64,000 nucleotides of DNA. Source: Escherichia coli (GTDB lineage Bacteria > Pseudomonadota > Gammaproteobacteria > Enterobacterales > Enterobacteriaceae). Shown piece by piece: positions 20,328-45,013 of this stretch (position 1 is its first letter; each line of letters opens with the position of its first letter). The notes under the pieces were generated by a model, which had not been told where the DNA came from, did no database searches, and saw only the letters and a list, made by a program, of their open reading frames with translations. The position numbers were made by a program, and so were the translations under genes. The DNA lies in NCBI RefSeq assembly GCF_017348835.2, contig NZ_CP071375.1; one strand, given 5' to 3'.

Positions 20328-20679
20328 AGCTCAACCTCCTGCCGCGCTAAAAAACCTGTAACTTCAGTCACTTTAATAGTAAGACAATCCTTACCCTCTG
20401 GCAATTTTTGCTAAGCATCAATGAAAACAGCATGTTAAATGCAACACTATTGCATGCGGAAAATTTTTTACTTTGCACGATTAATAATCAGTAGCTGAAA
20501 GCAGTCAGCCAGTGATAAAGTAGAGCCACCGCATTCATGCTCCTCGTGGTTATGTCCTGACTAGTCTTTACACTCTTTACAGGAACCATTGTCGTACATG
20601 ATGGCCCAACCAATTGAGTGTACCGCTGTCGACATGGAATCTTCTGCGATACAACAATTCGTATCTACAGAAGGTAACT

Positions 20680-21600
20680 ATGTTTCCACAATGCAAATTT
20701 TCCCGCGAGTTTCTGCATCCTCGCTACTGGCTCACATGGTTTGGGCTTGGTGTACTCTGGCTTTGGGTACAGCTTCCTTATCCTGTTCTCTGCTTTCTCG
20801 GCACGCGTATTGGCGCAATGGCGCGACCATTCCTGAAACGGCGTGAATCTATCGCCCGTAAAAACCTGGAACTTTGCTTCCCGCAGCATTCTGCGGAAGA
20901 ACGCGAGAAGATGATTGCCGAAAACTTTCGTTCACTCGGCATGGCGCTGGTAGAAACCGGCATGGCGTGGTTCTGGCCCGACAGTCGCGTACGTAAATGG
21001 TTTGATGTTGAAGGGCTGGATAACCTTAAACGCGCACAAATGCAAAATCGCGGCGTAATGGTTGTCGGCGTCCATTTTATGTCGCTGGAACTGGGCGGCC
21101 GCGTGATGGGACTTTGTCAGCCAATGATGGCTACCTATCGTCCACATAATAATCAGCTGATGGAATGGGTGCAGACCCGTGGTCGCATGCGCTCTAACAA
21201 AGCGATGATCGGCAGAAATAATCTGCGCGGCATTGTCAGTGCACTGAAGAAAGGTGAAGCGGTATGGTTTGCTCCCGATCAGGATTATGGTCGTAAAGGC
21301 AGCTCCTTCGCGCCGTTCTTTGCGGTAGAAAATGTCGCCACAACCAATGGCACCTATGTTCTCTCCCGTCTCTCTGGCGCAGCCATGTTGACCGTAACGA
21401 TGGTAAGAAAAGCGGATTACAGCGGATATCGTTTGTTCATCACCCCAGAGATGGAAGGCTACCCGACAGATGAAAATCAAGCCGCTGCCTATATGAACAA
21501 GATTATCGAGAAAGAGATCATGCGCGCACCGGAGCAGTACCTCTGGATCCACCGTCGCTTTAAAACGCGCCCGGTGGGAGAATCGTCGTTATACATTTAA
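20680..21600 (+). CDS. lpxP: Lipid A palmitoleoyl-ACP acyltransferase (cold-induced LpxL paralogue)
   Basis: ORF 20614-21600 trimmed to the internal ATG (MFPQCKFSREFLHPRYWLTWFG), 306 aa; lauroyl/myristoyl acyltransferase family. Confidence 0.9.
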   Translation: MFPQCKFSREFLHPRYWLTWFGLGVLWLWVQLPYPVLCFLGTRIGAMARPFLKRRESIARKNLELCFPQHSAEEREKMIAENFRSLGMALVETGMAWFWPDSRVRKWFDVEGLDNLKRAQMQNRGVMVVGVHFMSLELGGRVMGLCQPMMATYRPHNNQLMEWVQTRGRMRSNKAMIGRNNLRGIVSALKKGEAVWFAPDQDYGRKGSSFAPFFAVENVATTNGTYVLSRLSGAAMLTVTMVRKADYSGYRLFITPEMEGYPTDENQAAAYMNKIIEKEIMRAPEQYLWIHRRFKTRPVGESSLYI

Positions 21601-21955
21601 CAAACTGCTCTGACTCTTTACCTCCTCACATAAGCCATAATAACCTCATGGTTTTTATGGCTTTTTTCTTAAGGTTTTTTCCTTCGCTGAATATCTAATT
21701 ATTACCGTCAGAAATTAAACTGTCGCCGATATGAGACACCTGTAAGTTACTAAAAGTAAATAAGAAAATGCCTCTTGTCTCGTTTCAGTTTTAGGCGTAC
21801 ATTAGCGCCGTCTCGAGCAGTTTAGCTCAGAATTCTGGGGTGATGCCCACGGTAAAATACAGGACTTTTAAGGTCGTTTTGCCCGGTGTCAACTCACTGT
21901 ATCAGGTGTAATGAAGTCATTCAGGCGTAACAGCAATTACGCGGAGAGATGTAAA

Positions 21956-22027
21956 GTGAAATATTTCTTTATGGGCATTTCTTTTATGGTCATCGTTTGG
22001 GCCGGTACTTTTGCCCTGATGATCTAA
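21956..22027 (+). CDS. ypdK: Small membrane protein (23 aa), missed by the 60-aa ORF cutoff
   Basis: GTG start preceded by GGAGA at about 8 nt; encodes MKYFFMGISFMVIVWAGTFALMI, a single predicted TM helix; followed by a terminator hairpin. Confidence 0.7.
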   Translation: MKYFFMGISFMVIVWAGTFALMI

Positions 22028-22035
22028 AAGCAAAC

Positions 22036-22066
22036 TGTGCAATGAAAAACAGGAGCCATCAGGCTC
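22036..22066. terminator. Bidirectional intrinsic terminator between ypdK and alaC
   Basis: Hairpin AACAGGAGCC-atca-GGCTCCTGTT flanked by A-run and T-run. Confidence 0.65.
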
Positions 22067-22091
22067 CTGTTTGCATTTCTGAGGTCGGTGT

Positions 22092-23330
22092 TTATTCCGC
22101 GTTTTCGTGAATATGTTTGCTGCTGGCGGGTAGTAAACCGTCGGCACGGAACATCGCTTTAATCCCACGAATCGCCTGACGAATACGGTCGCGGTTTTCA
22201 ATCAGTGCAAAGCGCACATGCGTATCACCATAGTCGCCAAAGCCGATCCCCGGCGAGACACAAACCTTCGCTTCGTTAAGTAATTTCTTGGCAAACTCCA
22301 GCGAGCCCATGGCAGCGTAAGGTTCAGGGATTTTCGCCCAGACATACATCGAAGCCTTCGGCATTTCGACCATCCAGCCCGCTTCATGCAGCCCTTTAAC
22401 CAATACATCACGGCGGCGTTTGTACTGTTCGGCAATGTCGCGCACGCACTGTTGATCGCCCTCGAGTGCCGCAATCGCCGCCACCTGCAACGGCGTAAAG
22501 GTGCCGTAATCGTGATAGCTTTTAATACGTGCCAGGACGCTGACCAGCGTTTTGTTGCCAACCATAAAGCCGATACGCCAGCCCGCCATGTTGTAGCTTT
22601 TCGACAGCGTAAAGAACTCGACCGCCACATCGCATGCACCCGGCACCTGCATGATTGACGGCGCTTTCCAGCCATCGTAGACGATATCGGCATAGGCCAG
22701 GTCATGGACCACCAGCACATCGTAGCGTTTCGCCAGCGCCACAACCTTTTCGAAGAACTCCAGTTCCACGCATTGCGCGGTTGGGTTCGACGGGAAGCCG
22801 AGGATCATCATCTTCGGTTTCGGATAACTTTCACGAATGGCGCGCTCCAGTTCGTTGAAGAAATCGACACCTTCCACCAGCGGCACTGAGCGTACCTGAG
22901 CCCCGGCAATCACCGCGCCGTAAATATGAATGGGGTAACTTGGATTCGGCACCAGCACTGTGTCACCGTGATCCAGTGTCGCCAGCATCAGATGCGCCAG
23001 GCCCTCTTTCGAACCAATAGTGACGATGGCTTCTGATTCCGGGTCGATTTCAACGTCGTAGCGATCCTGATACCAGCGGGAAATGGCGCGACGTAGCCGC
23101 GGAATACCGCGTGAAGTGGAGTAACCATGCGTGTCCGGGCGCTGGGCCACAGTACATAATTTTTCGACGATATGCGGCGGAGTCGCACCGTCCGGGTTAC
23201 CCATACTGAAATCGATAATATCTTCGCCGCGCCGACGCGCAGCCATTTTCAGTTCAGCGGTAATGTTAAAAACATAGGGCGGGAGACGATCAATGCGCGT
23301 AAAGCGACGTTCAGGGCGAGTGTCAGCCAT
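22092..23330 (-). CDS. alaC: Glutamate-pyruvate aminotransferase (PLP-dependent, class I)
   Basis: 412-aa ORF with aminotransferase class I signature (...[12 protein letters not shown]...). Confidence 0.93.
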
Positions 23331-41726: not shown

Positions 41727-41802
<76 letters not shown>

Positions 41803-41841
41803 ACGATGCGTTTACGTACCAAATTTGCTGGGTGCAAAATT

Positions 41842-41917
<76 letters not shown>

Positions 41918-44615: not shown

Positions 44616-44691
44616 GGGTGATTAGCTCAGCTGGGAGAGCACCTCCCTTACAAGGAGGGGGTCGGCGGTTCGATCCCGTCATCACCCACCA
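44616..44691 (+). tRNA. valU: tRNA-Val (UAC)
   Basis: GGGTGATTAGCTCAGCTGGGAGAGCACCTCCCTTACAAGGAGGGGGTCGGCGGTTCGATCCCGTCATCACCCACCA. Confidence 0.95.
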
Positions 44692-44735
44692 ACTACTTTA
44701 TGTAGTCTCCGCCGTGTAGCAAGAAATTGAGAAGT

Positions 44736-44811
44736 GGGTGATTAGCTCAGCTGGGAGAGCACCTCCCTTACAAGGAGGGGGTCGGCGGTTCGATCCCGTC
44801 ATCACCCACCA
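44736..44811 (+). tRNA. valX: tRNA-Val (UAC), copy 2
   Basis: Identical 76-nt repeat of valU. Confidence 0.95.
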
Positions 44812-44857
44812 CTTTCTCACCAGCTAAATTTCTTGTAAAAATGTGAAGTACCGAAGT

Positions 44858-44933
44858 GGGTGATTAGCTCAGCTGGGAGAGCACCTCCCTTACAAGGAGG
44901 GGGTCGGCGGTTCGATCCCGTCATCACCCACCA
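44858..44933 (+). tRNA. valY: tRNA-Val (UAC), copy 3
   Basis: Identical 76-nt repeat of valU. Confidence 0.95.
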
Positions 44934-44937
44934 CTTC

Positions 44938-45013
44938 GGGTCGTTAGCTCAGTTGGTAGAGCAGTTGACTTTTAATCAATTGGTCGCAGGTTCGAATCCT
45001 GCACGACCCACCA
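44938..45013 (+). tRNA. lysV: tRNA-Lys (UUU)
   Basis: GGGTCGTTAGCTCAGTTGGTAGAGCAGTTGACTTTTAATCAATTGGTCGCAGGTTCGAATCCTGCACGACCCACCA. Confidence 0.95.

Follow-up and report, generated by a model that had tools for sequence, protein, structure and literature searches.

The characterized single-helix small membrane proteins of Escherichia coli act by binding larger membrane proteins. Among them, AcrZ, MgtS, MgrB, CydX, KdpF, and YohP share with YpdK, the subject of this study, the size class, the single hydrophobic helix, and, as predicted for YpdK, the inner-membrane location, and they are tabulated beside it (PMC10470546 Table S1). YpdK differs from them in that it shows no detectable sequence similarity to any and is essentially without a soluble tail. 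The gene is among the 18 small membrane proteins of Hemm et al. (2008), as cited in PMC3009722, and the literature that we searched assigns no function to its product and gave no partner or phenotype.

Two described counterparts stand closer still. In Escherichia coli K-12 MG1655, ypdK is b4680 (YP_002791250.1, at 2,496,921–2,496,992), and its 23-aa sequence, 72-nt coding sequence, start, stop, and position between lpxP and alaC are all identical to those of our window, by which we mean the whole stretch of 64,000 nucleotides of E. coli contig NZ_CP071375.1 that was analyzed; a few bases of the surrounding intergenic DNA are not those of K-12, whereas the coding sequence has no differences. 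In Salmonella Typhimurium 14028s, the reading frame named "mia-59" (Baek et al. 2017, PMC5345727) encodes a protein identical to YpdK from the same GTG; its ribosome-binding site, given as "ggag, 9," and its flanks ddg and yfdZ (= lpxP and alaC) are as in the window, while its coding sequence carries four synonymous differences, and it was unannotated in the 14028s genome at that time.

Identity of the Gene

The open reading frame considered here (Table 1) is very probably the known protein-coding gene ypdK. The same 72 bases carry this name in RefSeq, with the product "membrane protein YpdK" (WP_010723117.1), and the peptide matches the NCBIfam equivalog NF033437.1 "YpdK" end to end, residues 1–23 falling on profile positions 1–23 of 23, with 57.5 bits and E = 9.4e-16 at a curated cutoff of 30 bits; the name proposed for the frame in an earlier note, made from the sequence alone, was thus correct. 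A Pfam search with the YpdK peptide found no family. The RefSeq annotation and the K-12 alignment agree that the locus is that of b4680, between lpxP and alaC and convergent with alaC. The note had placed the gene between the same neighbors, in a gap that it put at 490 bp and that measures 491 bp, lpxP ending at 21600 and alaC, on the minus strand, at 22092. For lpxP itself, the mechanical ORF (20614–21600) starts with TTG at 20614 and has 328 aa, and RefSeq gives 306 aa from an ATG at 20680.

Within the species, the exact coding sequence is labeled ypdK in 5422 of 5426 complete E. coli genomes in RefSeq, and the 501 bases around it, which are 100% identical to those of strain XH990, are likewise found in 5422 of the 5426; with a median of one place per genome, ypdK is a single-copy core gene of E. 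coli. A tblastn search of plasmids with YpdK gave 14 matches, mostly to very large records resembling mislabeled chromosomes, which argues that the gene is not mobile. Departures from the common form were seen in individual strains: one (NZ_CP080066.1; WP_012767748.1) has G17S at an otherwise invariant glycine, and in O157:H7 strain SS17 (NZ_CP008805.1), where 71 of the 72 bases were matched, the annotation is shortened to 20 aa (63 nt with the stop). In one O26:H11 strain, a Stx2a prophage of 102.6 kb is reported to be inserted in the "mlaA-ypdK intergenic region" (PMC6667211), so the region near ypdK can be a phage integration site.

The gene is thus already known, and the finding of the note, although correct, is not new. 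With ypdK in the catalogues since 2008 and assigned by automatic annotation to almost all E. coli genomes, its recovery has little weight as a discovery; it does, however, provide a positive control for the scan, a genuine 23-codon gene under the ORF cutoff having been recovered from raw sequence. What our analyses add to prior knowledge is the breadth of the conservation, the invariant GTG, the shared terminator, and the apparently undescribed promoter and structured leader.

Table 1. Features at the ypdK locus, with positions counted from the first base of the window
Feature	Position	Strand	Details
Conserved upstream region, putative regulatory	21683..21770	+	conserved across Enterobacteriaceae whatever the upstream gene
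lpxP intrinsic terminator	21632..21667	+	−17.2 kcal/mol, z = −4.8, then UUUUUUCUU
Predicted sigma-70 promoter	21775..21803	+	−35 TTGTCT 21775–80, 17-nt spacer, −10 TACATT 21798–803
Hairpin A, 5′-terminal	21811..21831	+	UCU.GAGC / GCUCAGA; per-sequence folds
Helix B, long-range	21837..21895	+	21837–21848 pairs with 21884–21895, variable central hairpin inside; RNAalifold
Hairpin D	21925..21942	+	GCGUAA...UUACGC; abuts the Shine–Dalgarno sequence
Shine–Dalgarno sequence GGAG	21943..21946	+	9 nt 5′ of GTG
ypdK coding sequence	21956..22027	+	GTG start 21956–21958, 23 codons, TAA 22025–22027; one hydrophobic helix
Bidirectional intrinsic terminator	22047..22081	.	11-bp stem 22047–22057 / 22062–22072, A-run 5′, interrupted U-run 3′

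Coding Signal and Translation

Short reading frames are common, and the mechanical ORF list has 71 entries of 20 aa or more that overlap the surrounding 4.5 kb. A 23-codon frame alone is therefore no more than chance would provide, and the frame might simply stand open in intergenic DNA that is conserved for the sake of a terminator or regulatory sites; it is conservation that raises the ypdK frame above chance. We gathered 80 species loci via the neighboring AlaC protein, the sample thus consisting of Enterobacterales that carry alaC, and found a ypdK ORF convergent with alaC in 75 of them. The genera include Escherichia, Citrobacter, Salmonella, Enterobacter, Kluyvera, and Kosakonia and, further, Buttiauxella, Cedecea, Pantoea, Erwinia, Mixta, and Serratia. 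Four loci lack the ORF (Erwinia endophytica, Symbiopectobacterium, Lonsdalea, and a record labeled Pseudomonas), and for one, the contig was too short to judge. Most of the orthologs (54 of 75) are 23 aa in length, and the other 21 have one extra C-terminal residue.

The variation among these orthologs has the three-base periodicity of a coding sequence, with column entropies of 0.58, 0.18, and 1.13 at the three codon positions. Residues M1, Y3, M6, G7, S9, G17, T18, and F19 are invariant despite the saturation of synonymous codons, and G7, S9, G17, and T18 are each encoded by four synonymous codons. The pairwise pN/pS is 0.27 in the ypdK frame and 1.1–2.2 in four other frames; for the antisense frame with mirrored wobble positions, the value is 0.45. 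The start codon is invariant, and the stop varies in sequence (TAA, TAG, or TGA) but not in position. This comparison of orthologs shows that in Enterobacteriaceae, Erwiniaceae, and Serratia alike, purifying selection acts on the 72-nt frame at the protein level, and the idea of a frame open by chance, to which we give practically no credence, is already refuted by the codon-level analysis. That GTG is the start codon in 75 of 75 species, though synonymous sites are near saturation (pS 0.61), suggests that a weak start, or else pairing of the RNA, has been selected for.

The Shine–Dalgarno sequence is conserved with it: GCGGAG is invariant across the Enterobacteriaceae alignment, and GGAG is also found in Erwiniaceae and Serratia. 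The GTG-initiated frame of 23 codons behind a ribosome-binding site, as described in the note, is in this respect confirmed, but the same frame is open farther upstream, and the mechanical ORF list gives 21911..22027 as one ORF. The true product could then be a 38-aa protein starting at ATG 21911 (MKSFRRNSNYAERCKVKYFF...), with the GTG an internal codon, and this extension is also open in a second Escherichia locus (L002). In most other genera, however, a stop codon shortly before the GTG, at a distance of one to a few codons, closes it, so that, judged from the alignment, the ATG-extended reading is not conserved. The conserved GGAG, moreover, serves the GTG and not ATG 21911, which is preceded only by an AGGUG ending 2 nt before it, and the 23-aa form is the one adopted in RefSeq, in NCBIfam, and in the Salmonella ribosome-profiling table. 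We regard the longer protein as very unlikely and take the product to be the 23-residue MKYFFMGISFMVIVWAGTFALMI, written with its start as V(M)KYFFMGISFMVIVWAGTFALMI.

Another possible start codon lies close to the GTG. In E. coli, positions 21949–21954 form a minimal ATG-TAA "start-stop" between the Shine–Dalgarno sequence and the GTG. The same ATG, which precedes the GTG by 7 nt, begins a reading out of frame in other Enterobacteriaceae; with this ATG only 2 nt after the GGAG and a pN/pS of 2.2 in its frame, it is probably unused, and the lack of stops in that frame is explained as a by-product of the NUN hydrophobic codons.

Data on ribosomes point in the same direction as the codon-level signal. 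In a table comparing several datasets, ypdK is entered under Ribo-RET (PMC12350097 Table S1), and the Salmonella ortholog mia-59 has ribosome densities of 55,537 RPKM in LB, 83,825 in RDM, 40,494 at low Mg, and 18,934 at low pH (PMC5345727 Table S10). The occupancy of ypdK by initiating and elongating ribosomes in E. coli and Salmonella has thus been shown in the literature. Among the checks that the earlier note had proposed, ribosome profiling, for which it gave retapamulin-type start-site mapping as an example, and conservation at the codon level have come out in favor of the gene: start-site mapping in E. coli, ribosome density in four growth conditions for the Salmonella ortholog, and codon-level conservation as the strong signal described above.

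Terminators and Promoter

While alaC is the convergent neighbor of ypdK, the upstream neighbor changes between genera, and lpxP is found there only in Escherichia, Citrobacter, Salmonella, Enterobacter, and Lelliottia. Even the adjacency to alaC is not absolute, as judged from Serratia, where one locus (L077) has a 174-aa ORF between alaC and ypdK and two others (L070 and L081) have a similar distance between the two genes. The lpxP terminator in the window is predicted to separate ypdK from lpxP transcription.

Between the convergent genes, the hairpin AAACAGGAGCC-AUCA-GGCUCCUGUUU at 22047–22072 lies 19 nt from each of the two stop codons and folds at about −21 to −26 kcal/mol (z about −3.5, on both strands). 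In nearly all 75 loci, a GC-rich hairpin is found 15–25 nt past the ypdK stop, the stem sequences differing and the flanks being formed by A and U runs. As the U-run that follows the hairpin is better on the minus, or alaC, strand (UUUUUCAUU) than on the plus strand (UUUGCAUUUCU), we consider the terminator bidirectional and common to the two genes. The "clean terminator" that the note had assigned to ypdK is thus a real hairpin, but it does not belong to ypdK alone. A simple terminator scan missed it because the extension of the stem swallowed the A and U runs.

On the other side of the gene, we suggest that ypdK would be transcribed alone from a sigma-70 promoter of its own, with the start site at about 21808–21811, and that its mRNA of about 270–275 nt, with a leader of about 146 nt, would end at the terminator common with alaC. 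The strongest conserved block upstream is cTTGT-N17-gcGTAcATTAGCGCC, and a GC-rich discriminator, AGCGCC, directly follows the −10 element. TAnATT with TTGnnn or TTTATT 17 nt upstream is present in 72 of the 75 species; its median distance from the GTG, on the 5′ side, is 151 nt. A transcript overlapping ypdK in a tiling-array study has its 5′ edge 148 nt before the GTG, at about window position 21808 (PMC3009722 file S3); since the array is of low resolution, our estimate of the start site combines it with the conservation. A simple promoter scan skipped this promoter because only 8 of the 12 positions match. In many genera, a more proximal TATAAT-like block about 50 nt 5′ of the GTG, degenerate in E. 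coli (TGTATC), could form a second ypdK promoter.

Conservation extends beyond the promoter, and about 250 bp 5′ of the GTG are conserved despite the differing upstream gene. By its motifs, the segment at 21683–21770 looks like a putative binding site for a regulator: it contains GTCGC-type motifs (TTCGCT at 21683–88, TGTCGCC at 21721–27, and an inverted GAGACAC at 21733–39, replaced by CGACAC in other genera), together with the palindrome TTACT-AAA-AGTAA and, adjoining the −35 element, a tract rich in A. No regulator was identified for the motifs of this segment. An RcsB-box-like TAAGAAAATGCCTC adjoining the −35 was rejected as a candidate, its G and flanking bases not being conserved. The upstream region also overlaps a promoter-like match on the minus strand (GCGACA-17-AATAAT, 21726 to 21698), which points toward lpxP and has both hexamers on conserved bases; as the conservation ends about 15 nt downstream of its putative start, a conserved divergent RNA is unlikely.

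Leader RNA

The predicted ypdK transcript, 21808–22082, exceeds shuffled sequences in its degree of structure (z = −3.95), and its leader (about 146–150 nt, window 21810–21955) is conserved in length. The position of hairpin A is filled in nearly all Enterobacteriaceae by stems whose sequences differ between genera, with a mean minimum free energy of −6.3 kcal/mol against −3.8 for shuffled sequences, figures that come from per-sequence folds and not from column-wise covariation counts. Helix B and hairpin D are likewise supported across Enterobacteriaceae. For the 10 pairs of helix B, 90.9% of the cells are paired against 83.6% in shuffled alignments (none of 500 reached the observed value) and 34 cells show double changes against 15.9; for the six pairs of hairpin D, the corresponding figures are 87.2% against 74.9% (again none of 500) and 34 against 12.5. 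While such shuffling may overstate the support for helices in related sequences, slid controls, which retain the relatedness, pair in at most 62% of cells for helix B and in 8–60% for hairpin D. Sequestration of the Shine–Dalgarno sequence by codons 3–6 was also considered and, although predicted at −7.5 kcal/mol in E. coli, was rejected as inconsistent across genera.

The leader region is single copy and without annotation in E. coli genomes, and an Rfam search over 21400–22300 with E values up to 1 returned only chance, subthreshold matches to the plastid psbJ 3′UTR and a snoRNA (E of at least 0.056). The conserved control region of ypdK, comprising the upstream DNA, the promoter, and the leader, appears to be undescribed so far. 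Given a transcript of about 275 nt that is so unusually structured, leader helices that are backed by covariation or per-species folds, and a leader length conserved at about 150 nt, one could suppose that the transcript acts mainly as an RNA, as a structured regulatory or dual-function sRNA, and that the ORF is secondary. We find this improbable. The strong protein-level selection on the ORF would be left unexplained by a role as RNA only, ribosomes occupy the ORF, the Rfam search found no match even at E up to 1, and no base-pairing target is known for the transcript, although it may still have a second role as an RNA beside its coding one. A leader attached to a protein-coding message remains the reading that we prefer.

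Toxin loci are typically patchy in distribution and multicopy. In contrast, ypdK is single-copy, syntenic, and core in 5422 of 5426 E. coli genomes, and purifying selection has maintained it in three families, all of which counts against another way of reading the locus, as the gene of a type I toxin-like peptide (cf. Ibs, TisB, and DinQ) that is silenced by the leader and induced by DNA damage. The resemblance to such genes lies in the very short hydrophobic peptide, the long structured 5′ UTR, and the weak GTG start, and the tiling-array transcript overlapping ypdK does go up about twofold after UV (log2 1.06; PMC3009722 file S3). No LexA-box-like sequence that could explain the UV induction is visible at the promoter, however, and the Salmonella ortholog is well translated in ordinary media. 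Nor was a conserved antisense gene found, the sole promoter-like match on the minus strand lying 230 nt upstream and pointing away; no antisense promoter overlaps ypdK, and neither sign of an antisense RNA nor the patchy or multicopy spread by which type I toxin–antitoxin systems are recognized was seen. A toxin is, in our view, highly improbable.

Discussion

The features of the peptide are those expected of a membrane helix. The mean Kyte–Doolittle hydropathy of residues 4–23 is 2.15, K2 is the sole charged residue, and TMHMM gives one transmembrane segment, residues 4–21, in N-out/C-in orientation (PMC10470546 Table S1); the single hydrophobic helix described in the note is, at the level of prediction, borne out. 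The same source reports that HA-MBP-YpdK was uncleaved in a screen for RseP substrates, the topology there being predicted only (PMC10470546 Table S1). Our own reading, by the positive-inside rule, is that the topology is probably N-in/C-out: a basic residue, K2 or R2, is conserved near the N terminus, and E is the commonest extra residue at the C terminus (E in nine, K in four, and A in two of 40 unique protein sequences). This is countered by the TMHMM orientation and by the orthologs that end in K.

The 23-residue product, with its basic K2 followed by about 20 hydrophobic residues, would insert as a single inner-membrane helix. In the most speculative step of our proposal, this helix would serve as an accessory or regulatory subunit by packing against an inner-membrane protein that is larger and widely conserved, and the packing would use the conserved small, polar, and aromatic residues Y3, M6, G7, S9, W15, G17, T18, and F19. 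A single conserved face of the helix is not supported, as the conservation moment is 0.13 with a permutation p of 0.42; the conserved residues form two clusters at the helix ends. With two end clusters and no stripe, a helix enclosed by its partner or by an oligomer fits better than one docked from one side. A profile search of the PDB with YpdK gave one chance match, to a light-harvesting protein (E = 0.57).

The gene neighborhood of ypdK has no consistent membrane-protein neighbor. Its linkage to the sensor kinase YpdA raised that protein as a candidate partner, but the case is weakened, and YpdA is unlikely to be obligatory, by Salmonella arizonae, which retains ypdK and alaC without ypdA. 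The earlier note had remarked that small membrane proteins of this kind often modulate transporters or kinases, which would be a reasonable generality, and by analogy with the characterized examples, YpdK would most likely serve a larger inner-membrane protein as its accessory helix. A bolder combination, in which the leader would be a new cis-regulatory RNA that tunes the amount of a 23-residue protein, itself an unrecognized subunit of a core enterobacterial complex in the inner membrane, is a rather doubtful possibility. YpdK is nevertheless among the most conserved E. coli microproteins without an assigned function, and the eight invariant residues, the invariant GTG, and the leader structured across three enterobacterial families offer handles on its partner and its regulation.

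At the gathering threshold, the Rfam scan of the whole window returned tRNAs only. Two tRNA-Ala(GGC) genes lie on the minus strand at 41727–41917, and a cluster of three tRNA-Val(TAC) genes and one tRNA-Lys(TTT) gene lies on the plus strand at 44616–45013.
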